This document shows, in pieces, positions 7,525-61,338 of a DNA stretch of 64,000 bases. The DNA comes from Candidatus Moraniibacteriota bacterium (lineage in GTDB: Bacteria; Patescibacteriota; Minisyncoccia; Moranbacterales; UBA11712): positions 607 to 64,606 of the forward strand of contig JAZDKQ010000023.1 in the NCBI GenBank assembly GCA_043802865.1, given 5' to 3'. Position numbers and translations under genes: made by a program. The notes beneath the pieces are model-generated. The model ran no database searches, was not told where the DNA came from, and worked only from the letters and a program-made list of their open reading frames with translations. How positions within the stretch are numbered: the first letter of the stretch is position 1; the number at the start of each line of letters is the position of its first letter.

Positions 7525-7682
7525 GCAACGCATGATTAAATTTCCGTATAGTCCGCGCCGAGATGTTGCAGGGAGTAGAATGTCTTCTCGCCGAACCTAT
7601 ATCCCCGCTTGAGCCTGTTCCAATTTTTCAAAGGAGATTGCATGTTGTTTTGAGGCCATGTCTTGGTAGAGATCAGTTGTTA

Positions 7683-7731
7683 CATAACACATCTATTCCT
7701 AAAGTTAAATTTTAGGAATAGATGTGTTATG
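7683..7731. repeat. perfect 21-bp inverted repeat (hairpin, 7-nt loop) in a roughly 200-nt non-coding gap
   Basis: CATAACACATCTATTCCTAAA-gttaaat-TTTAGGAATAGATGTGTTATG. No U-run on either side. Confidence 0.6.
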
Positions 7732-7735
7732 CCTG

Positions 7736-23504: not shown

Positions 23505-23607
23505 ATAGTTATAAGGTACAACAAAAAAGGCAATTTTGCAATACTTGAAGCTGGATTTATTTCGGCATATATGCTATGCTAATGTTCAGTTGGAGCTTAA
23601 CTTTTTT

Positions 23608-23641
23608 CAGCCCGAGGCTGATCCGCCTTGGGCGGAAGACC
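23608..23641. repeat. family-A-like GC-rich palindromic element (intergenic, variant)
   Basis: CAGCCCGAGGCTGATCCGCCTTGGGCGGAAGACC. Same subtype as the insert at 43171. Confidence 0.6.
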
Positions 23642-25717: not shown

Positions 25718-27643
25718 ATGGTCATCGATCTCCTAAAATTGATTCTCACAATCCCCTTTCTCCTTGTTTTGCCGGGGTTCTTTTTCCAATTGGCTGTTTT
25801 CGGCATGAAAAGCAGAAAAATATCTTTTTTTGAAAAAGCGGTCTTGACCGTTCCATTCAGCCTGATTGCCGTCAACTTGATCATTTTGCTTCTGGACAAG
25901 TTGAATATTCTGCTGAAAGGCCCGGTGATCGTCGGGGCTGTGCTGATATTTTGTGCTGTGTGTTTCGCGGTTTTTCAATTTCGATTCGGAAAGAAAAAAA
26001 ACAAAGAGGATGGCGTGGAGCCTGAAAAAATATTTAATTTTTCCACTTGGCAGACGATTTTCATTCTTCTTGCAATCGTTCTGGCGATTTTCATCCGCAC
26101 AGCCTATCTCTCCGATACGATCGTCCCCTCTTCAACCGATCTGGGACATCATATGTATTGGTCCCAGATGATCATCAATTCTGGACATCTTCCCGAATAT
26201 GGAATGCCGGACTTCATCATCGGTGAACATATCGTTTTTTCCGCGGTGAATCTTGTGAGCGGGGCGGGATTGATGTCGGCGATGCCGGCGCTTCTCCTTT
26301 TTCTTTTCAACATCACAGGAATTTTCACCATCGCGATCCTGCTTGGTCGGATATTTGAAAACAAAAAGATCGTCGCTGTTTCTTTTTTCGTCGCCGGATC
26401 TTTGTACGCAATAAACGCGCCGCAAGGGCGATATGTGAGCGGCGGAGTCATTGGAAATATCATTGGCGATATGCTGATTCCCGTGGCGCTATATTTTCTC
26501 TATCGTGCTCTCACCGAAAAAGATCAAATTTTTGCCGGCCTATTCCTCTTTTCATTCGCGGGACTGCTTTATACCCATCATTTGAGTGCGTTTATTTTTA
26601 TTTTTTCAATTGTTGCTATCATAGCTCTGTATCTGATATTGAACTTCAGAAATATCTTCAAGATTGCCGGAGATTGGCTGAAAGTGTTTTTGAAGCCGTT
26701 TCCTCTCGCGATTTTGCTGCTGGTCGCCTTCTTTTTTCTGTTTGTTTTCACACCGTCATATTTCAATTCAGCTGCGGTGAGTCAAGCCACGGGTACGCCC
26801 ACGAAGATCACGCGAGTTGGCTTGAGTTTGAGTCAAATTGAGAGAGGCATCGGAAGCGCCCAATTGTTTTTGGCCGGACTCGGGTTTCTTTTGGTCCTTC
26901 TTGAACTGTTTAGAGAAAAAGAATGGTCCGCCCGAGGCGGATCTCAGCCAAAGGCTGACCAGCCTCTGGCCGGCGCCGAAAAATTTGGCGGAAAATATTC
27001 CGTCGCACTTAGCTGGATTTTGATCCTTTTTGTCATGACATGGAAGCCGGCACTTCTGGATGTGAATATTCCCAGCGACCGGATAAGTAATTATTTGTTT
27101 TTGCCGATCGCTCTTCTCTCCGCCTACGGCTTGGTGCGATATTTTGAAATTTTTGGCGCGGCAGCCTCCCGCTTCTCTTCGGCTGTTTTGCTTTTCACGC
27201 TCCTGTTTTTCGTCATCACGAACGGACTTTCGGACAGCGCGGACGCCTTCAAGACAAAAAACCAATTTCAGCAAGCGGTGCAAACTTTTCACTCGGCCGA
27301 GTATCTGGCGTCAACAGTGGACACAAACAAAGATATAATTTTGAAAGACCATGTGAACATATACGGAGATTCGTGGTACAAATTGTTTTTTATGAAAGAT
27401 TATAAATATCCCCTCTCTCGAGGAGTTCTCACGCGATATGTTGATCCGACAAAAACGCGCGAAACTTGTACGCGGGACATGATCTCTTTTCCGGAAAGCG
27501 ATACCGCGAAGGAATGTTTTGCCGATACGGGCGTGAACTACGTCGCCGTGAATTCCCAGATCGAAGGCAATAGTTTTGAAAAATACCCGGATTTCTCAAA
27601 AGTCTACGGCTCGGATTATATTTCTATTTTTAGAAGAGATTAA
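25718..27643 (+). CDS. large polytopic membrane protein (possible GT-C-type glycosyltransferase/polymerase)
   Basis: At least 12 predicted TM helices plus a C-terminal soluble domain. No firm motif. Carries a family-A element in-frame at 26928. Confidence 0.4.
   Translation: MVIDLLKLILTIPFLLVLPGFFFQLAVFGMKSRKISFFEKAVLTVPFSLIAVNLIILLLDKLNILLKGPVIVGAVLIFCAVCFAVFQFRFGKKKNKEDGVEPEKIFNFSTWQTIFILLAIVLAIFIRTAYLSDTIVPSSTDLGHHMYWSQMIINSGHLPEYGMPDFIIGEHIVFSAVNLVSGAGLMSAMPALLLFLFNITGIFTIAILLGRIFENKKIVAVSFFVAGSLYAINAPQGRYVSGGVIGNIIGDMLIPVALYFLYRALTEKDQIFAGLFLFSFAGLLYTHHLSAFIFIFSIVAIIALYLILNFRNIFKIAGDWLKVFLKPFPLAILLLVAFFFLFVFTPSYFNSAAVSQATGTPTKITRVGLSLSQIERGIGSAQLFLAGLGFLLVLLELFREKEWSARGGSQPKADQPLAGAEKFGGKYSVALSWILILFVMTWKPALLDVNIPSDRISNYLFLPIALLSAYGLVRYFEIFGAAASRFSSAVLLFTLLFFVITNGLSDSADAFKTKNQFQQAVQTFHSAEYLASTVDTNKDIILKDHVNIYGDSWYKLFFMKDYKYPLSRGVLTRYVDPTKTRETCTRDMISFPESDTAKECFADTGVNYVAVNSQIEGNSFEKYPDFSKVYGSDYISIFRRD
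26928..26978. repeat. family-A element (extended variant) in-frame in membrane protein gene
   Basis: TCCGCCCGAGGCGGATCTCAGCCAAAGGCTGACCAGCCTCTGGCCGGCGCC encodes SARGGSQPKADQPLAGA. Confidence 0.6.
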
Positions 27644-29153: not shown

Positions 29154-30625
29154 ACATTGAATCTCTATTCGCTCACAAAAAGAAATTTCAAACGGACAAA
29201 ATGAAAGTCCCGGCGATTTTGCATTGCTCGGACAATCTTTTGCCGAACGAAAAAACTCTCGCGCAGCTTGAAAATACCGCTTCGCAAGAACATGTTTTTC
29301 ACCACATTGCGGCGCTTTCGGATGTTCACGACAAAAAAGGCCGCAAAAATCCGACCGGGACAGTTGTCGCGAGCGAAAATTTTCTTTTGCCGCAGATCAA
29401 CGACACGGCGCCAAACTGCGGAATGCGGTTTTTGAAAACGAATCTAACAGACGCTGATTTGGCTCCGGAAAATATCAACAAATTATTCAACGCCCTTTTG
29501 AAGCCGGTTCCGACAAAAGCCTACGTCGGATCGAAAATTCCATATTCTCTTGTCGTGGATATATGCCGGCACGGACTTAAGCCGGTGACGGAATATTTCA
29601 AGACGCGAACAAAAAATGAGATCAAAAATACTTTCAAGGGCGGAAATTTTTTTTCCGCCGAAGGCGGATCCGCCTCTGGCGGAGACATACCCAGCAAACA
29701 AGATATCACTGACGCTATTCCCCAGTTGTTTTTGTGGATTGGAAAATTTCGTCTCGGAATTCTTGGAGCGGCAGGAAATCATTTTTTGGATCTCATGAAG
29801 ATATCCGAAATAAAAGATCCTGAAATGGCAGAAAAATTTGGGATCAAAAAAGGACAATATATTTTTATGATGCACACTGGATCAGGACTTTTGGGACAGT
29901 ATGCATCGTACCTGTATACTCCAAAGAAAAAAGAACATACAAGCCAGCGCATTGTGCTTGAACTTGGGAAACTGACATGGCGATCCGGAAAGAAAGATAC
30001 CTACAAGAAAATTGCGAAGAAAATCGCCGAGTATAAAGATAAAGACGAATTTTTCGCCTATGACGCGGAATCCCCCGAAGGAAAAATGTTTTTGACGGCG
30101 CATCAAGCAGCGGGCAATCAAGGATTTGCCAATCGCTGCATTCTCACTCACAATCTTGATCAGACAATTGAAAAAGTTTTGGGAAAAAATCCCGAGCTAG
30201 AACTCCTTTATGACGCGCCGCATATTTTTGTGAATCGCGAAAACCATTTTGGAAAGGATGTTTGGGTGCATCGCAACGGCGCTGTCCGGGCGATTGCCGG
30301 AGAACCCGTTTTCATTCCGTCTTCTATGTCAACTCCTGCCTATCTGGCTGTTGGCACTGATCAGAATGAATCAACATTTTTTTCTGCCGCTCACGGCACC
30401 GGACGACGAAAAAATCCCGAAAGCAACAAAGCCGGGACAAAGGACGAATTGTTCGCGAAAATGCAGCAGCGAAAAGTAAAATTGTTCAACGCCAAATCAA
30501 AAGGTGTGGTTTTTCAGGATTCAGGATATTATAAGGATGTTGAAGAAGTGATCGCCGGAATGGAAGAAAACAAAATCGTGAAACCGGTGGCGAAAATGGA
30601 ACCAATTGCCGTTTTAATGTACTAA
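29150..30625 (+). CDS. rtcB: RtcB-family RNA ligase (divergent), carrying an in-frame family-A element
   Basis: LSDVHDKKGRKNPTGTVVAS (compare MPDVHxGxG), APNCGMRF (compare DINCGVRL), HTGSGLLGQ, HRNGAVRA, PSSMSTPAYLAVGT, AAHGTGRR. Confidence 0.65.
   Translation: MNIESLFAHKKKFQTDKMKVPAILHCSDNLLPNEKTLAQLENTASQEHVFHHIAALSDVHDKKGRKNPTGTVVASENFLLPQINDTAPNCGMRFLKTNLTDADLAPENINKLFNALLKPVPTKAYVGSKIPYSLVVDICRHGLKPVTEYFKTRTKNEIKNTFKGGNFFSAEGGSASGGDIPSKQDITDAIPQLFLWIGKFRLGILGAAGNHFLDLMKISEIKDPEMAEKFGIKKGQYIFMMHTGSGLLGQYASYLYTPKKKEHTSQRIVLELGKLTWRSGKKDTYKKIAKKIAEYKDKDEFFAYDAESPEGKMFLTAHQAAGNQGFANRCILTHNLDQTIEKVLGKNPELELLYDAPHIFVNRENHFGKDVWVHRNGAVRAIAGEPVFIPSSMSTPAYLAVGTDQNESTFFSAAHGTGRRKNPESNKAGTKDELFAKMQQRKVKLFNAKSKGVVFQDSGYYKDVEEVIAGMEENKIVKPVAKMEPIAVLMY
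29653..29684. repeat. family-A element in-frame in rtcB
   Basis: TTCCGCCGAAGGCGGATCCGCCTCTGGCGGAG encodes SAEGGSASGGD. Confidence 0.7.
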
Positions 30626-35225: not shown

Positions 35226-35366
35226 ATCCTCCCCTCCTCAGTTTCCGCCAAAGGCGGATCTGCCCCTGGTTGAGAGGAGGGGGCAGGGGGAGGTGTTGCA
35301 AGAGCGCAGAAAACTCTCAACACCCCTCTGTCCTTCGGACATCTCCCCCCATCTAAGAGGAGAAGG
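35226..35366. repeat. family-B structured element, copy 1, with a nested family-A copy (35242-35268); supplies the priA SD
   Basis: Matches 47317-47430 except for the 27-nt insert TTTCCGCCAAAGGCGGATCTGCCCCTGGT. TIRs are ATCCTCCCCTCCTCA / TGAGGGGAGAAGGAT. The 3' end reads AGAGGAGAAGG 5 nt before the priA ATG. Confidence 0.8.
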
Positions 35367-37828: not shown

Positions 37829-38812
37829 TTGATTAATAAACCAAAAATTGTATTCTTCGGCACGCCGGAATTTGCGGCGGGGGTTTTGAAATCGCTTGTT
37901 GGCAACAAATACAATATTGCTTTTGTCTTCACTCAGCCGGACAAAAAAATTGGGAGAAGACAAGAAGTTGTTTTTTCTCCGGTGAAAGATTTGGCGCTGA
38001 AAAACAAAATTGAAATATTTCAGCCGGAAAGTTTGCGAGACAGTGAATTGGCCGAAAAGATTAAAAAAATTGGCGCTGATCTTTTTGTTGTCGCCGCGTA
38101 TGGGAAAATATTACCCAAAGATATATTGGAAATTCCAAAATATGGAGCGATAAACATTCACGCATCTCTCCTTCCAAAATATCGCGGAGCGTCGCCGGTG
38201 CAATGTGCTATCCTCTCTGGAGAAAAAGAAACAGGGATCACAGTGATGAAAATGAACGAAAAGATGGATGAGGGTGATATTTTGGCGCAGAAAAAGATAG
38301 AGATCGGCGAAAATGAAACGGCGGATTTATTGTTAAATAGGCTGTCAAAAATTGGAGCGGACATGATTGGCGAATTTATTCCCGACTGGATTTCCGGAAA
38401 AATAAAGTCGATTCCTCAAGATCAAAATATGGCGACTTATTGCAAGCCGGTCAAGCGCGAAGACGGGAGAATAGATTGGAATTGTCCCGCCGAAGAAATA
38501 AGCTGCAAATGGCGAGCCTATTATCCCTGGCCGGGAATATATTCAATAATAAATATCTCCGCCAGAGGCGGATCCGCCTTTGACGGAAAAAATCAGCCCA
38601 AAAGGCTGAAATTGTTGGAGATAGAGATTATTCCCAATATAAAGACTGGCGAAAAAACCGGGAAAATTATAGAATATGATCAGAAAGTTGCCGTTCAAAC
38701 GGAAATTGGATTGATAATTTTGAAAAAAGTTCAACTTGAAGGGAAGAAGGAAATAGATATCGATGAATTTTTGAGAGGCAATGTCGGATTCATTGGAAGT
38801 ATTTTGGAATAA
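37829..38812 (+). CDS. fmt: methionyl-tRNA formyltransferase, carrying an in-frame family-A element
   Basis: MINKPKIVFFGTPEFA; SLLPKYRGASPVQ; C-terminal domain present. TTG start. Confidence 0.85.
   Translation: MINKPKIVFFGTPEFAAGVLKSLVGNKYNIAFVFTQPDKKIGRRQEVVFSPVKDLALKNKIEIFQPESLRDSELAEKIKKIGADLFVVAAYGKILPKDILEIPKYGAINIHASLLPKYRGASPVQCAILSGEKETGITVMKMNEKMDEGDILAQKKIEIGENETADLLLNRLSKIGADMIGEFIPDWISGKIKSIPQDQNMATYCKPVKREDGRIDWNCPAEEISCKWRAYYPWPGIYSIINISARGGSAFDGKNQPKRLKLLEIEIIPNIKTGEKTGKIIEYDQKVAVQTEIGLIILKKVQLEGKKEIDIDEFLRGNVGFIGSILE
38557..38587. repeat. family-A element in-frame in fmt
   Basis: CTCCGCCAGAGGCGGATCCGCCTTTGACGGA encodes SARGGSAFDG in the C-terminal domain. Confidence 0.7.
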
Positions 38813-42828: not shown

Positions 42829-42901
42829 GGCTGGGGTGCTAGGATTCGAACCTAGGATCATGGGACCAGAACCCATTGCCTTACCACTTGGCTACACCCC
42901 A
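42829..42901 (-). tRNA. tRNA-Gln (anticodon CUG)
   Basis: TGGGGTGTAGCCAAGTGGTAAGGCAATGGGTTCTGGTCCCATGATCCTAGGTTCGAATCCTAGCACCCCAG. U1-A72 and G73 as in bacterial tRNA-Gln; anticodon loop TTCTGGT. Confidence 0.85.
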
Positions 42902-43155
42902 ATGTTATTATATTTTTCTATAATATCTCTTTTTTCTCCCACCCCACTATAACTTTTCAAATATTTTTCCCTTAATCTGGCTTCGGGCATCGATGTATGC
43001 TGTTCTGTGTATATTAGGGCAAATGGTCTTCTTGAACGAGTAGATTTAACTTTGCCTGAATTGTGATTAGATAACCTTTTCCTGACATCAGCAGTAATGC
43101 CGACGTAACAATTATCGTCTTGTAGGCTTTTAAGAATATAGAGGTAATATTTCAT
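42892..43155 (-). CDS. GIY-YIG nuclease-family small protein; stop codon lies inside tRNA-Gln (positions 8-10)
   Basis: MKYYLYILKSLQDDNCYVGITADVRKRLSNHNSG...RPFALIY matches the GIY-YIG core. ATG at 43155; the track extension to 43221 reads through the tRNA fragment. Confidence 0.6.
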   Translation of the reverse strand: MKYYLYILKSLQDDNCYVGITADVRKRLSNHNSGKVKSTRSRRPFALIYTEQHTSMPEARLREKYLKSYSGVGEKRDIIEKYNNIGV

Positions 43156-43157
43156 TG

Positions 43158-43214
43158 TTTTACCACTTGCCTGCCCGCGGCTGAGCCTTGGGCGCGGCCA
43201 GGGGCTACACCCCA
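43158..43214 (-). repeat. duplicated 5' end of tRNA-Gln (positions 1 to about 20) interrupted by a 33-nt GC-rich family-A-like insert
   Basis: Minus strand reads TGGGGTGTAGCC-[CCTGGCCGCGCCCAAGGCTCAGCCGCGGGCAGG]-CAAGTGGTAA, immediately upstream of the GIY-YIG ATG. Confidence 0.7.
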
Positions 43215-43254
43215 ATAACATCCCAGATTCTATAATATTTTGGGAAAAATATCA

Positions 43255-46101: not shown

Positions 46102-46172
46102 GGCGGGATTAGTTCAGTGGCAGAACACGACCTTCCCAAGGTTGAAATACGGGTCCGATTCCCGTATCCCGC
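46102..46172 (+). tRNA. tRNA-Gly (anticodon CCC)
   Basis: GCGGGATTAGTTCAGTGGCAGAACACGACCTTCCCAAGGTTGAAATACGGGTCCGATTCCCGTATCCCGCT; anticodon loop TTCCCAA. Confidence 0.8.
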
Positions 46173-46179
46173 TCTGAAA

Positions 46180-46252
46180 AGCCGATGTAGCTCAGTTGGC
46201 AGAGCGACACACTCGTAACGTGTAGGTCCGCGGTTCGATCCCGCGCATCGGC
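46180..46252 (+). tRNA. tRNA-Thr (anticodon CGU)
   Basis: GCCGATGTAGCTCAGTTGGCAGAGCGACACACTCGTAACGTGTAGGTCCGCGGTTCGATCCCGCGCATCGGCT; anticodon loop CTCGTAA. Confidence 0.8.
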
Positions 46253-47305
46253 TCAGAACACCGAAGGATCCCCTTCGGAATTGGCGGGAAGGTTTTGCTC
46301 GAAAGTTCGCATTCCGCCGTCGCGGAACTCGATTTGAGTATTGCTTGAATTCCACTGGTAGTCTTTCAAGAATATTGTAACCGAGTAAACCTTCGTTTTT
46401 TCTTTCAACCAGTCGGCAAAAGTGGTTTTTTTCACGAAAATCTGGCGAAGATGCACCAAATCAAATCCGTTGTCCATCTTTTTCTCTTCCAATTTCAGAA
46501 CATGGAACCCAAGCGGGCTTTCGATCGGTTCACTGATCTCCCCCGTTTTCATCGAAAACGCTTTGTCTGCGACAGTTTGGATCAGCTGATCTTTCGTCGA
46601 CCAGCCGAGATCGCCTCCGTTTTCCGCGCTTTGTCCGTCTGAATTTTCTTTCGCCACTTTTGCGAAATCCTCTTTTTTGCTTGTCGCTTTTTCATAGAGC
46701 GATTTTATTTTTGCTTGCTGAGTGCTTGTGTCCATTTCATTCACATAAACTTCCGCCAATTTTTCGCTGTACATTCCGGGCTTCACAACTTTTTGTTCGA
46801 AGTCATTGATGGTCCAGCCGTATAGTCTTGCAAGGTCGCTCATCAAATTGTCCTTGTTTCCGAATTGTTGGATAGTGCTCTCAAGTTCCGTGGAGACAGC
46901 ACTGTTAGTGAGTGTGATACCGCGCTTTTGAGCAAGATTTTCGATCACCTTGTTTTCGATCATTTTATTTATGATCTCTTTTTCCTTGACTTGGAGTCTT
47001 TTTACTCCTTGATCGGTTGAAAAATCAACTCGCATGCCGATTTTTTCGAAGTCCTGCGATTCATAGAATTTTTTGACGGAAGCTACATTGACTTTGATCT
47101 CATTGACACTGATGGATCCCGCTCCGCGGACATATACGGCCGGAAACGGAATGACTTTGGTCGCGCCAACAAAAAAACGGTTGTTCCAATTGAATTTATA
47201 GACGCCAAGAACCAAAAACAGCAAAAATACAAAAATCGCGCCGGCGGCAACGCCGACAATTATCCAAATTTTGTGTTTTTTGAGATTTCCTTTTTTGTTG
47301 GGCAT
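46253..47305 (-). CDS. membrane-anchored parvulin-type peptidyl-prolyl isomerase (PpiC/PrsA-like)
   Basis: N-terminal TM; parvulin segment GGDLGWSTKDQ...ISEPIESPLGFHVLKL. Confidence 0.55.
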   Translation of the reverse strand: MPNKKGNLKKHKIWIIVGVAAGAIFVFLLFLVLGVYKFNWNNRFFVGATKVIPFPAVYVRGAGSISVNEIKVNVASVKKFYESQDFEKIGMRVDFSTDQGVKRLQVKEKEIINKMIENKVIENLAQKRGITLTNSAVSTELESTIQQFGNKDNLMSDLARLYGWTINDFEQKVVKPGMYSEKLAEVYVNEMDTSTQQAKIKSLYEKATSKKEDFAKVAKENSDGQSAENGGDLGWSTKDQLIQTVADKAFSMKTGEISEPIESPLGFHVLKLEEKKMDNGFDLVHLRQIFVKKTTFADWLKEKTKVYSVTIFLKDYQWNSSNTQIEFRDGGMRTFEQNLPANSEGDPSVF

Positions 47306-48006: not shown

Positions 48007-49881
48007 CTATTTTCGCAAAACCGCCAAAAAGGCGCTGCTCGGGATTTCAACCCGTCCGAGATTGGTCATCTTTTTCTTTCCTTTTTTCTGCTTTTCAAGC
48101 AATTTTCTCTTGCGGGTGATGTCCCCGCCATACAACTTGGCCGTCACGTCTTTTCGGAAGGCTTTGACTGATTCGCGAGCGAGGATTTTTCCGCCAACGG
48201 CTGCTTGAAGGGCAATCACGAAGTTTTGGCGCGGAATGACATCCTTCAACTTTTCCACGGTGGCTTTGCCATCCGAAAAAACTTTTTCTTCCGGAACTAT
48301 TCTTGAGAAAGCGTCAATCCTGTCGCCCCCAACAAGAATATCGAGTTTCACGAGCTTGTTCGGCCGGTACCCAAGAAACGCATAGTTCATCGAAGCATAT
48401 CCACTCGAAGCGCTTTTCAGCTGGTCATGCAAATTGATGATGACGTCCGTGAGAGGAGATTCAAAGGTGAGGATCAGTCTTTCCGCGTCTATATATTCCG
48501 TGTTCTTGTATTCCGCTCGCGTGCTCCGCATCAGATCCATAATCGAGCCGAGATATTTTGAAGGAGAAATGAGATCGAGTTTCACATAGGGCTCTTCAAT
48601 GGATTCAATGATCGAAGGATCCGGCATTTCAAGGGGAGAATATATTTTAATTTTTTTTACTTTTCCGCCCGAGGCGGATCCGCCTTTGGCGGATATTTCA
48701 TATACCACGCTTGGAGTGGTAATGACTGGGTCTATTTCAAATTCCCTTTTGAGTCTTTCCTGGACAATTTCTATATGAAGGAGTCCTAAAAATCCGCAGC
48801 GAAATCCCCGTCCTAGCGCCAGATTGGCTTCCGGTTCAAACGCGAACGCGGCATCGTTGAGTTTCAATTTTCCCAGCGCGTCTCGCATGAAGTTGTAATC
48901 GTCTCCTTCTTTCGGATAGAAACTGGCATAAACAACCGGCCGGATCTCTTTGTATCCGGGAAGCGCCTGCATTTCGCCTGGGTTTTTTTCCAAAACGATC
49001 GTATCGCCGACGCGGCAGTCTTCGACGGTTTTGAATCCGGTCGCGATGTATCCGATATCGCCCGCGGACAATTCATTTGTTTTTTCCAAATTCGGCTTGA
49101 AATGGCCGACTTCGATCACGGAACTTCCCTGCTTGGTCGCCATAGCGAGAATTTTTTCTTCGGCATGGATCTTTCCGTCGACAATTCGGACATAGGCGAG
49201 AACTCCTCTGTAGGTATCATATTTTGAATCAAAAATGAGAGCGCGAAGAGATTTTTCCTGTTTTCCTTTGGGAGAAGAAATTTTTTCGACGATCGTTTCA
49301 AGAATTTTTTCAACGCCTTCCCCTGTTTTCCCACTGGCCTCGAGAATTTCTTCTTCCTTGCAGCCGAGAAGATGAACGATTTCTTTTTTCGTTTTTTCTA
49401 TCTCGGCGTTCGGAAGATCTATTTTGTTGATCACGGGAATGATTTCCAGCCCCTGTTCGATGGCATAATAGAGATTGGCGACTGTCTGCGCTTGTACGCC
49501 TTTTGACGCGTCCACAAGCAAAACCGCGCCCTCCACAGCGGCCAGGGAGCGAGAAACTTCATATTGAAAGTCCACATGCCCGGGAGTGTCTATGAGATTC
49601 AAGATAAAAAAGTCCGGCTTTGAGGAATTGGAGGCGTCAGCCGACAAGGGAAAAGCCGGACTTTGATTTGAAATCCGAGGACTATAAATCATCCTTACGG
49701 GTTGTAATTTTATAGTAATGCCACGCTCGCGCTCAAGATCCATCGTGTCCAGAAGCTGTTCTTTCATCTTTCGATCTTCGACCGTATGCGTAATCTCAAG
49801 CATCCGATCGGCCAGAGTGGATTTCCCATGATCGATATGCGCGATTATACAAAAATTCCGGATGTTTTGCTGGTTATTCAT
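48007..49881 (-). CDS. lepA: elongation factor 4 (LepA) carrying two in-frame palindromic insertions
   Basis: IIAHIDHGKSTLADR, NLIDTPGHVDF, conserved C-terminal domain. Extra segments GGSASGG and SPRISNQSPAFPLSADASNSSKPD. Confidence 0.9.
   Translation of the reverse strand: MNNQQNIRNFCIIAHIDHGKSTLADRMLEITHTVEDRKMKEQLLDTMDLERERGITIKLQPVRMIYSPRISNQSPAFPLSADASNSSKPDFFILNLIDTPGHVDFQYEVSRSLAAVEGAVLLVDASKGVQAQTVANLYYAIEQGLEIIPVINKIDLPNAEIEKTKKEIVHLLGCKEEEILEASGKTGEGVEKILETIVEKISSPKGKQEKSLRALIFDSKYDTYRGVLAYVRIVDGKIHAEEKILAMATKQGSSVIEVGHFKPNLEKTNELSAGDIGYIATGFKTVEDCRVGDTIVLEKNPGEMQALPGYKEIRPVVYASFYPKEGDDYNFMRDALGKLKLNDAAFAFEPEANLALGRGFRCGFLGLLHIEIVQERLKREFEIDPVITTPSVVYEISAKGGSASGGKVKKIKIYSPLEMPDPSIIESIEEPYVKLDLISPSKYLGSIMDLMRSTRAEYKNTEYIDAERLILTFESPLTDVIINLHDQLKSASSGYASMNYAFLGYRPNKLVKLDILVGGDRIDAFSRIVPEEKVFSDGKATVEKLKDVIPRQNFVIALQAAVGGKILARESVKAFRKDVTAKLYGGDITRKRKLLEKQKKGKKKMTNLGRVEIPSSAFLAVLRK
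48664..48695. repeat. family-A element in-frame in lepA
   Basis: TTCCGCCCGAGGCGGATCCGCCTTTGGCGGAT encodes SAKGGSASGGK (minus-strand reading). Confidence 0.7.
49609..49664. repeat. family-D palindromic insertion in the lepA G-domain region
   Basis: AAAGTCCGGCTTT...31 nt...AAAGCCGGACTTT (13-bp inverted repeat). Coincides with about 18 extra residues before NLIDTPGHVDF. Confidence 0.55.
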
Positions 49882-54616: not shown

Positions 54617-55758
54617 CTTTTATATATTTCAAGCGTTTCTTTCGCCATTTTTTTCCAGCTGTATTTTTGAATTTGTTTTTTCCCGGCTTCAATCAATTTT
54701 TTTCGCAAATCATTGTCCGTCAAAACTTTTTCAATCACTTCGGAAGCTTCAGAAACACCTCGCGGATCAAAGAAAAGGGCGGCATTCCCCAATATTTCCG
54801 GCAGACAGGACGCATTGGAACTTGCGACTGGAATATTTCTTGCCATCGCTTCAAGCGGCGGGAGACCGAATCCCTCATAAAGCGAAGGAAAAACATACAG
54901 CCTTGCTTCGCGATATATTGTTGGCAGATGATCTTCATCTATATGGTCGGGAAAAACAACGTTTGAAACTTCATTGTCCGCCACGAATTTTTTCAGCCGT
55001 TTGTAAAAATAATCTTCCTTTCCCGCGAGAACCAAGCTCAAACCGGGATGCTTTTTGGCAACTCCCTTGAAAGCCGAAATGAGCCGTTCGAGATTTTTGT
55101 GCGGGTAGGCATTTCCGACATACAAAATGTACGGTCTCATTATACCATACTTTTTGAGAACAGTTTCCGAATTTTCCAGCAGTGGTTTTTCAATCGTGTC
55201 CACCCCCTCATAGGTGACGATAATTTTTTTCGAATCTATATCGAAATTTTCCAGTATATCTTTTTTCGTGTGCTCCGAAACGGCGATTATTTTTTCCGAT
55301 TTCTTGATGGCTCGGTTGATCACTCGATGATACGCTTTTTTCTTGAAAAAATATGCCGGAGCCGACAAAGTTGACGCCTTACGGGTGGAATATCGAAAAA
55401 GAATAAGGTCGTGAATCGTGACGATGAATTTTCCTTTGTATGAAACAGGAACATTGAAGTGGGGAAAATGGACAAGATCAAGTCCGCAGCTCGCAAAGAT
55501 TTTCGGCATTTGGATCTGTTCCCGCAGTGTGTACCAAGGGACATCCGCCAAAACTTTCGTGAAATGTTTGCTTTGAGGCTGGTATTCATCCCAATTTTCT
55601 TTTCGGAGAAATATAAAAAACTGGTAGGAATTGTCCCAGCCGGAGGCTGGTCCGTCTTGGGCGGAGATATTTTCCAGATTTTCTATCAGTTTTTGAGTAT
55701 ACCGCCCGAGTCCCTTTCCTATCGACCCGAAAAAGCGGGCATCGATTCCAATGCGCAT
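54607..55758 (-). CDS. family 4 glycosyltransferase
   Basis: MRIGIDARFF start and YEGFGLPPLEAMA motif. Confidence 0.7.
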   Translation of the reverse strand: MRIGIDARFFGSIGKGLGRYTQKLIENLENISAQDGPASGWDNSYQFFIFLRKENWDEYQPQSKHFTKVLADVPWYTLREQIQMPKIFASCGLDLVHFPHFNVPVSYKGKFIVTIHDLILFRYSTRKASTLSAPAYFFKKKAYHRVINRAIKKSEKIIAVSEHTKKDILENFDIDSKKIIVTYEGVDTIEKPLLENSETVLKKYGIMRPYILYVGNAYPHKNLERLISAFKGVAKKHPGLSLVLAGKEDYFYKRLKKFVADNEVSNVVFPDHIDEDHLPTIYREARLYVFPSLYEGFGLPPLEAMARNIPVASSNASCLPEILGNAALFFDPRGVSEASEVIEKVLTDNDLRKKLIEAGKKQIQKYSWKKMAKETLEIYKSCG

Positions 55759-60933: not shown

Positions 60934-61338
60934 GATTAGTCGGGGCCTATAAGCCGGATTCTGTATCCCGCCAAAGCGGGACGATAATCATTTATCTAGC
61001 CCAGACATTGCTGTCGGGGTCGAGCGTTTTCTCTATTTTAAAAAATAGAGTACAAACTTGCACCAAGCAGGGTTTACCAAATTCCAATTATTGCTAATTG
61101 GTTCCGACCGCAGCTGGATACTTTGCGCGAGCTCAATATCCAACACCAGTCGGCTTTTCACCTTTGTCCGCCGAAGAGGCGGATAGTATTGTCTCTGTGG
61201 CACTTTCCCTAAATATATTTTTCAATATACCCGATGGGGGTTACCCATTGCTCTTTTTGTCCCGCTAAGCGGGACAGGTGTCCGGACTTTCCTCCTCGCC
61301 CATAAAGGGTGAGGCGATTATCCAGCCCTGACTAACTT
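60934..61338 (-). ncRNA. rnpB: RNase P RNA (bacterial type)
   Basis: Minus strand contains GAGGAGGAAAGTCCGGACAC (P4 5' strand), AGGGAAAGTGCCACAGAGAC, ACAGAATCCGGCTTATAGG (P4 3' strand). P1 pairs TTAGTCAGGGC with GCCCCGACTAA. About 490-nt gap with no credible ORF. Confidence 0.85.

Follow-up and report, generated by a model that had tools for sequence, protein, structure and literature searches.

Two unrelated families of tiny hairpin-forming repeats probably inserted in frame in the lepA gene of a Candidatus Moraniibacteriota bacterium

The lepA gene, which encodes elongation factor 4 (EF4, or LepA), lies on the minus strand of a 64,000-nucleotide stretch of a Candidatus Moraniibacteriota genome (contig JAZDKQ010000023.1, positions 607 to 64,606), hereafter the window. 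The gene carries two short palindromic segments, here called the family A and family D elements, which lengthen the protein in frame. The identity of the open reading frame (ORF) at 48007-49881 is supported by an end-to-end match to T. thermophilus EF4 (PDB 4W2E; E = 1e-197), and all G-motifs of the 624-amino-acid protein are intact. The nearest LepA relatives, up to 90% identical, belong to Candidatus Moranbacteria, within the Candidate Phyla Radiation (CPR). A preliminary description of the locus had reported two distinct in-frame palindromes in this gene; both are present in the sequence, and they belong to two unrelated repeat families. The features concerned are the following.

48007..49881, minus strand: lepA (elongation factor 4), intact, 624 amino acids, host of a family A and a family D element
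48664..48693, minus strand: family A element in lepA, 30 nucleotides, SAKGGSASGG, LepA residues 397-406
49609..49665, minus strand: family D element in lepA, 57 nucleotides or 19 codons, QSPAFPLSADASNSSKPDF, in the G-domain loop
49666..49680, minus strand: extra codons CCT CGG ATT TCA AAT (PRISN) upstream of the family D element, absent from the 595-amino-acid baseline protein described below

The family A copy reads TCC GCC AAA GGC GGA TCC GCC TCG GGC GGA on the coding strand and, on the plus strand, forms two abutting 15-nucleotide (nt) hairpins, TCCGCC-CGA-GGCGGA and TCCGCC-TTT-GGCGGA. The architecture of the family is (TCCGCC-NNN-GGCGGA)x2, each unit having a 6-bp stem (TCCGCC/GGCGGA) and a 3-nt loop, and the single-stranded lepA doublet folds at -12.5 kcal/mol (z = -3.5). 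Because the first loop follows the pattern NRA and the second TYN, the 30-mer is a nearly perfect palindrome centred on GGATCC, and one frame therefore yields S-A-x-G-G-S-A-x-G-G on both strands. A doublet has no defined orientation, given the rough complementarity of its loops, and the idea of an orientation shared by the copies in the window was therefore dropped. The location and peptide first given for the lepA copy stand; its end is at 48693 rather than 48695, which makes it 30 nt and not 32.

The arms of the family D copy form a perfect 13/13 inverted repeat, AAAGTCCGGCTTT and AAAGCCGGACTTT, at 49609-49621 and 49652-49664 with a 30-nt spacer, as had been described. By our own estimate, the chance of such a repeat, with arms no more than 100 nt apart in a 1.9-kb gene, is about 0.003. 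The single-stranded element folds at -15.8 kcal/mol (z = -5.3) and is open in all three sense frames. Members of the family are 57 to 66 nt long and are built in three tiers, with a 13-bp outer stem, the conserved unpaired sequences TTTCCCTT and AATTCCTC, and a variable inner hairpin; the lepA copy scores 70.3 bits against the covariance model of the family (E = 2e-18). The extra low-complexity segment reported at this point does coincide with the element, but it is composite, consisting of the 57-nt D copy and probably older additional codons, SPRISN in the protein.

The protein was aligned with 120 Moranbacteria LepA sequences and compared at the codon level with five fetched orthologues. 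The commonest length among the 120 aligned sequences, 595 amino acids, served as the baseline, in which the two turns of interest read PVRM-KFKEYT-LNLIDTPG (G domain) and VVYEI-KVKSKKEKL-KIFSP (second turn). Relative to this baseline, the query gains 23 residues in the G-domain loop (site 1), while at site 2 there are 10 inserted residues and an adjacent 4 deleted; the solved EF4 structure shows gaps of 18 and 7 residues at the two sites. In an AlphaFold2 model of the query (57 aligned sequences; mean predicted local distance difference test score [pLDDT], 68.9), the D insert lies in the connection of strands 62-66 and 92-98 and the A insert in the turn that links strands 394-398 and 410-413; pLDDT falls below 50 at residues 71-86 in the former and at residues 401-407 in the latter. 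Both model loops coincide exactly with the gaps in the EF4 alignment. The model thus suggests that the inserts are disordered extensions of two beta-hairpin turns, in agreement with the earlier proposal that such elements are tolerated in surface loops. The PRISN codons resemble the start of an (AAAATTC)n heptamer-repeat insert found at site 1 in orthologue P0002 and others, and they are probably an older insert into which D landed. The insert of P0002 itself (L001:3160-3230) is a tandem heptamer (AAAATTC)n read KISNSKIQNSKF, and ISNFKFQISN-like peptides also occupy the domain II hairpin of other LepA lineages.

Moranbacteria LepA proteins range from 591 to 752 amino acids, the differences lying almost wholly at two or three loops. 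The G-domain loop in particular is generally highly variable in length and sequence, which favours an explanation in which both segments are ordinary lineage-specific loop extensions that arose through local indels or low-complexity expansion, with coincidental palindromes. The contents of the window argue against it. The pattern of the 15-nt A unit has 10 matches in the window, where shuffled sequence leads one to expect 0.21, and a count of 10 was reached in none of 100 shuffles. Family A occupies seven loci in the 64 kb (about 1 per 9 kb), 5 in genes and 2 intergenic, and all five of the in-gene copies are read in the TCC GCC NNN GGC GGA (S-A-x-G-G) frame. The six loci outside lepA are listed here.

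23607..23636, no strand assigned: A doublet TCAGCC-CGA-GGCTGA plus TCCGCC-TTG-GGCGGA, intergenic, between divergent glycosyltransferase genes
26927..26973, plus strand: A array of three units inside a 641-amino-acid membrane-protein ORF, first unit SARGG
29654..29683, plus strand: A doublet in rtcB, in frame, SAEGGSASGG
35244..35273, no strand assigned: A doublet with a decayed second unit, intergenic, at the centre of the palindrome CCTCCCCTCCTC...GAGGAGGGGG
38558..38587, plus strand: A doublet in fmt, in frame, SARGGSAFDG
55636..55665, minus strand: A doublet in a GT4 glycosyltransferase gene, in frame near the N-terminus, SAQDGPASGW

The stems occur in complementary variants (TCCGCC/GGCGGA, TCAGCC/GGCTGA, and CCAGCC/GGCTGG), and those of the GT4 copy are CCAGCC/GGCTGG and TCCGTC/GGCGGA. 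The GC-rich outer palindrome around the second intergenic copy spans 35228-35293; A is likewise nested in CCCCCTT-AAGGGGG-type palindromes in contigs L079, L080, L119, and L125. No further copy of D was found in the window with the D covariance model. A candidate at 7680-7734 scores 19.6 bits with that model but is an unrelated palindrome, long, AT-rich, and intergenic, with 16-nt outer arms and an inner hairpin.

Presence of the two elements is patchy among close orthologues, which also argues against local indels. Family A is absent from the LepA genes of P0001, P0002, P0004, and P0006 and family D from those of P0003 and P0002, and at 85 to 90% identity all four states are found: both elements in the query, A without D in P0003, D without A in P0006, and neither in P0002. 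The segments are therefore insertions and not lineage-wide features of LepA, as the preliminary description had held, since the multiple alignment contains LepA proteins 85 to 90% identical that lack A or D. At the A junction of lepA, the filled site GAA ATA-(30 nt)-AAA GTA AAA corresponds to the empty site GAA ATA AAA GTA AAA of P0001. A second pair of sites is found in fmt, where filled ATC-(30 nt)-AAA corresponds to ATA AAG in a related Moranbacteria genome, and the difference is an exact 10-amino-acid insert; the genome with the empty fmt site (JAPLXD01) holds an A doublet in another gene (L019). Target-site duplication at the A junctions in lepA and fmt can amount to at most 1 nt; the D junctions have diverged too far for such a comparison. 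A GT4 orthologue in L004 was considered as a third empty site and rejected, its 5′ part being not comparable.

The elements also recur at other positions, as had been supposed. The A 30-mer lies at the query's codon in the lepA of P0028 (78% identical), two codons downstream of the query position in P0080 (72% identical), and in another loop, in domain II, in P0066. In P0001 and P0004, the G-domain loop holds a D that is read in another frame and whose arms differ but are compensated, which brings the frames seen at this loop to at least two (0 and 1). A neighbour-joining tree was constructed from 122 LepA sequences with the insert columns left out; on it, Fitch parsimony requires 6 changes for A, 12 for the presence of D, and 37 for the G-domain loop state. 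This loop also takes heptamer tandem repeats, an HPNPLLEKERE-type palindrome, and a whole PD-(D/E)XK domain. The latter, in P0062 (752 amino acids), is an in-frame insert of about 160 amino acids with the Pfam label PF13366, flanked by low-complexity TRINADCTRIDAD... and ...NQRVSASNPRESV, and it resembles a nuclease gene that has become fused into lepA. Other insert types, for example KACPPGNAKRCGR and NTAEKINPAPSFKALNSSRQATGLSGRCG, are found at site 2 in P0013, P0029, P0042, P0051, and P0119, and within NTAEKINPAPSFKALNSSRQATGLSGRCG the fragment PSFKALNSS resembles D. This turn is probably a target of several further repeat families.

Both palindromes are conserved at the nucleotide level far above the surrounding gene, contrary to the outcome that would have refuted the preliminary description. 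The A element of the query is 29/30 identical to that of each of P0003, P0028, P0080, and P0066, while for the same pairs the gene-wide nucleotide identity is 68 to 82% and third-position identity at conserved codons is 37 to 53%. The structurally free A loops, AAA and TCN, are also common to the copies in LepA orthologues. For D, the query and P0006 share 55/57 positions against 76% across the gene, and this is not a recombination tract, because the 60-nt flanks on either side are only 72 to 80% identical. Identity of this order suggests either an origin more recent than that of the host genes or constraint on the elements at the DNA level, and elements that are 96 to 97% identical where synonymous sites are saturated again speak against local indels. 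The same nucleotide sequences occur, moreover, in unrelated genes and, for A, in unrelated phyla (see below). The presence of both sequences at many loci and in many genes refutes the explanation by local indels and low-complexity expansion, to which we assign a negligible probability.

The preliminary description had asked whether the D palindrome occurs elsewhere; it is a single copy in the window, and it is multi-copy in related metagenome contigs. We found it at no fewer than 120 metagenome loci, and several contigs hold 2 to 3 copies. The consensus is c-AARGYTCGRCY-TTTCCCTT-(inner hairpin)-AATTCCTC-AARGYCRARCYTT, in which the conservation of the two unpaired motifs is partly imposed, as the contigs were searched for them. 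Pairing is well maintained across 82 distinct copies: 90.8% of cells are paired, as opposed to 20 to 55% when the partner columns are slid, and double-sided compensatory cells number 299 versus 112 in shuffles. At least three versions of the arms, mutually compensated, were found: AAAGCTCGGCT, AAGGTTCGACC, and AAAGTCCGGCT. Among 91 non-redundant full copies, lengths of 60 nt (57 copies) and 57 nt (26 copies) prevail, and 88 are divisible by three. Long ORFs contain 75 of the 91, in the sense orientation in 64 cases, and the sense copies are distributed over frames 0, 1, and 2 as 40, 16, and 8. Judged from the motifs flanking the inserts, the hosts include TsaD, TatD, MetRS, LigA, TrmD, CCA-adding enzyme, MurB, XseA, LepA, and glycosyltransferases. 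One TatD loop carries D in all three frames in different contigs, D of one arm type is found nested inside D of another arm subfamily, and the inner core of the lepA copy (…PLSADASNSS…) is common to D copies in TsaD and MetRS genes.

The density of D is 59 strong copies in 503 kb of D-bearing contigs. A is rare in contigs with D (9 units in 824 kb). The distributions of the two families are separate, because D in A-bearing genome loci is limited to LepA relatives. In D-bearing loci such as L224:1380-1440, L189, and L130, one or two additional right halves, each made of AATTCCTC and the right arm, often come after a complete D. A 5′-truncation signature for D was considered and rejected as too weak (11 solo right halves versus 5 solo left halves).

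These features bear on a second alternative, in which the hairpins are made in place: template switching or hairpin-primed repair would perfect quasi-palindromes, and a sequence-specific factor would give the same stems. A hairpin TCAGCC-CAAAA-GGCTGA at 38593-38609, 5 nt past the fmt A copy, replaces non-palindromic codons of the orthologue with the length unchanged and may be a palindrome formed in this way; the survival of stem complementarity via double changes also fits. Against it, independent insertions in LepA have the same unconstrained loops (AAA, TCN) as well as the same stems, and what separates a filled from an empty site is exactly one complete 30-nt unit. Nor could local repair recreate the 16 nt of conserved unpaired sequence in D or place one D within a D of a different arm subfamily, and we consider formation in place very unlikely.

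Family A was sought in one genome per species across a 596-Gb collection with an exact 30-mer doublet pattern of 24 fixed bases, so that its stem conservation across phyla is partly forced by the search. The 30-mer was found in at least 120 genome contigs, where our own calculation predicts about 0.004 chance matches in 596 Gb. By record title, the contigs among the matches listed comprise 63 from CPR and 57 from other groups, the latter including contigs labelled Gammaproteobacteria (11), Omnitrophota (10), Planctomycetes (4), Ignavibacteria (4), Kiritimatiellae (3), and Lentisphaerae (3), plus Verrucomicrobiota, Chloroflexota, and others. In the same set of matches, ORFs of 150 codons or more contain 83 of the 128 copies, and the S-A-x-G-G frame is used by 72 of these 83 (p = 9e-24); the other frames (PPxADPPxAE or RRRRIRLWRK) are rare. 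Doublets outnumber single units 133 to 40. The flanks favour TTT-element-AAA, with T at position -2 in 85% and A at position +2 in 77% of copies. A larger palindrome extends the element by at least 3 nt in 15 of 124 copies (p = 1e-9), and period-7 repeats flank 7 of 124 (about 6%) compared with 0.55% of control positions, a roughly tenfold excess.

Two of these settings deserve description. In Kiritimatiellae, an A doublet lies within a composite intergenic repeat of about 185 nt with a GTCATTCCGAGCG-type palindrome (L010:4569-4752 and L010:6390-6572), and the two direct copies of this repeat are 1.8 kb apart with ordinary genes between them. In Ignavibacteria (L034, L047), A occurs at the same point of two different proteins, ...F-SAxGGSAxGG-D/N..LASGVYFY, a site that looks like a type IX secretion C-terminal sorting domain. 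Phage were considered as a vector for A and rejected, as only 2 matches were found in 2.9 million viral contigs (0 for the control pattern).

The genome-collection A matches listed are all from metagenome-assembled genomes, which raises the possibility of sequencing or assembly artefacts. We regard this as exceedingly improbable, since the same insert is found at the orthologous codon, with single-base differences, in assemblies from different projects and assemblers (ENA, JGI, NCBI), copies lie on contigs of 0.7 to 1.6 Mb (L017, L034, L077, and L081), and the reading frame is preserved in the copies.

A more serious alternative is that the elements are nucleic-acid signals, that is, mRNA hairpins involved in ribosome pausing or transcript stability, protein-binding sites, or intervening sequences excised at the RNA level. 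The conservation of the elements well above neighbouring synonymous sites points in this direction, and the covariation and two conserved unpaired motifs of D are like those of structured RNA; the bias of D toward the sense strand of its hosts (64/75) would also be expected. However, the frame bias of A and the three-fold lengths of D argue that the copies are read by the ribosome and therefore not excised. Older A copies have decayed through uncompensated stem mutations, GACGGA in fmt, TCCGCT in P0028, and TCCACC in P0066, from which it may be argued that the hairpin is without function once inserted. The host genes and positions are unrelated, some orthologues lack the elements altogether, and neither A nor D matched any Rfam family at gathering thresholds or at E values up to 10. 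On balance we consider a signal function unlikely.

We think it probable that the two lepA segments are copies of two unrelated, tiny hairpin-forming interspersed repeat families that landed in loop-coding parts of the gene with the frame intact. Their best reading is as non-autonomous, translated, selfish palindromic repeats resembling those of Rickettsia. Copying would be carried out by an enzyme encoded elsewhere and acting in trans on the hairpin form, either by single-stranded-DNA transposition of the HUH/RAYT kind (RAYT, REP-associated tyrosine transposase; REP, repetitive extragenic palindrome) or via an RNA intermediate, the route that has been proposed for the small dispersed repeats (SDRs) of cyanobacteria. 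Insertion would prefer A/T-rich TTT-AAA sites and the centres of other palindromes, and purifying selection would then remove every copy whose translation is not a short, flexible peptide exposed at the protein surface. Among the copies that survive, the benign frame and lengths that are multiples of three are strongly over-represented. The hairpins are maintained through compensated variants, which suggests that the hairpin matters for propagation.

Several points weigh against this reading. The case for mobility is drawn entirely from comparative patterns and that for translation of the inserts from frame statistics. The high identity of the elements could reflect DNA-level selection or gene conversion and not recent insertion. 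The conservation of the D motifs and of the A stems across phyla owes something to the search patterns, as noted above, the evidence from lengths divisible by three comes for D mainly from two size classes (57 and 60 nt), and D is present only once in the window. A Pfam search of 50 ORFs of the window revealed no transposase, RAYT, or reverse transcriptase, and clustering of 2452 ORFs around 120 A loci yielded neither a transposase nor a recurrent neighbour gene family.

Small GIY-YIG ORFs were seen in three family A loci. In the window, a 109-amino-acid ORF with a GIY-YIG nuclease domain lies at 42892-43221 (minus strand) and overlaps the 5′ side of a tRNA gene (42831-42901) by 10 nt. Further tRNA genes are found at 46103-46173 and 46181-46253, and a bacterial class A RNase P RNA at 60934-61333 (minus strand; 178.6 bits).

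Among known systems, Rickettsia palindromic elements (RPEs) are repeats of 100 to 150 bp, restricted to Rickettsiales, that occur in intergenic and coding regions, including in frame in housekeeping genes (PMC1779305). Like them, A and D are interspersed palindromes located in frame in the loops of many genes, and A is found in both coding and intergenic regions. They differ in size (30 nt for A, 57 to 66 nt for D), in their CPR host, and, for A, in the occurrence in many phyla. In function, RPEs are the closest match. Work by Ogata and colleagues (Science, 2000) and by Claverie and Ogata (2003) reportedly places RPE-derived peptides on protein surfaces, and we know of no dedicated transposase for RPEs.

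In size and behaviour, the closest analogues would be the cyanobacterial SDRs. Elhai and colleagues (2008, Genome Res 18:1484) are said to have described, in the Nostoc group, mobile repeats of 21 to 27 nt that form hairpins with compensatory changes and nest in their own copies and in other palindromes, often within tandem heptamers. The SDRs are reportedly confined to one cyanobacterial subgroup, and their description is not known to emphasise translated in-frame copies. Family A shares with them the small hairpin with compensated stems, the sites at palindrome centres, and the period-7 flanks, and D shares the nesting of one copy in another. A and D differ from SDRs in their hosts, which are CPR and other phyla.

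REPs and their doublets (REPINs) are short GC-rich palindromes of 20 to 40 bp in high copy number; they are non-autonomous and mobilised in trans, and it is the doublet, able to form a longer hairpin, that replicates (PMC3733652, PMC3116915). One end of a REP carries an unpaired GTAG or CGTC tag, and REPs are for the most part extragenic, with some inside genes (PMC3733652). Family A resembles them in its GC-rich 15-nt units, arranged in 30-nt doublets with roughly complementary loops, and in its high copy number, but it lacks the GTAG/CGTC tag (its flanks are TTT and AAA), and most of the copies listed lie in long ORFs (83/128, as given above). RAYTs, which are Y1 transposases, were neither found by Pfam among the 50 window ORFs nor recurrent near the 120 A loci. 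[quoted passage not shown] With MITEs, D has in common terminal inverted repeats (the 13-bp perfect arms), a probably non-autonomous nature, and ORF overlap, and A is a near-perfect 30-nt palindrome; the A junctions, in contrast, are without target duplication. A parent insertion sequence with matching ends was not seen in the DNA examined, no collection-wide search having been made.

A literature search with topic terms and exact sequences, of incomplete coverage, returned no description of A or D, and only primers with GGCGGATCCGCC and the known comparators. The two families are best filed with the in-frame palindromic selfish repeats, from which they stand out by their tiny size, their CPR host, and the cross-phylum spread of A. 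We suggest more tentatively, and would not regard it as the likelier outcome, that A is an undescribed ultra-small mobile element that has spread horizontally among CPR, Omnitrophota, the Planctomycetes-Verrucomicrobia-Chlamydiae (PVC) group, Ignavibacteria, Chloroflexota, and others, that it is, together with D and further families found in the same loops, a main source of loop-length variation in CPR housekeeping proteins, which are streamlined in other respects, and that it depends on an enzyme class not yet linked to such repeats.

If this is true, no smaller mobile DNA than family A would be known that persists in translated form. The identity of a 30-nt element across phyla raises the question of the agent that copies it and the route by which it passes between phyla. 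The inserts would serve as a natural map of insertion-tolerant loops in conserved proteins, and the element families could mark strains and aid the binning of CPR genomes. They are also a warning for alignments, phylogenies, and structure predictions, in which peptides such as SAKGGSASGGK and QSSAFPF...NSSKPSF would represent DNA parasites and not functional motifs. CPR genomes are held to be streamlined and to contain little mobile DNA. The window has a tiny palindromic repeat about every 9 kb, mostly within essential genes. If general, such insertions would account for much of the puzzling length heterogeneity in conserved CPR proteins.

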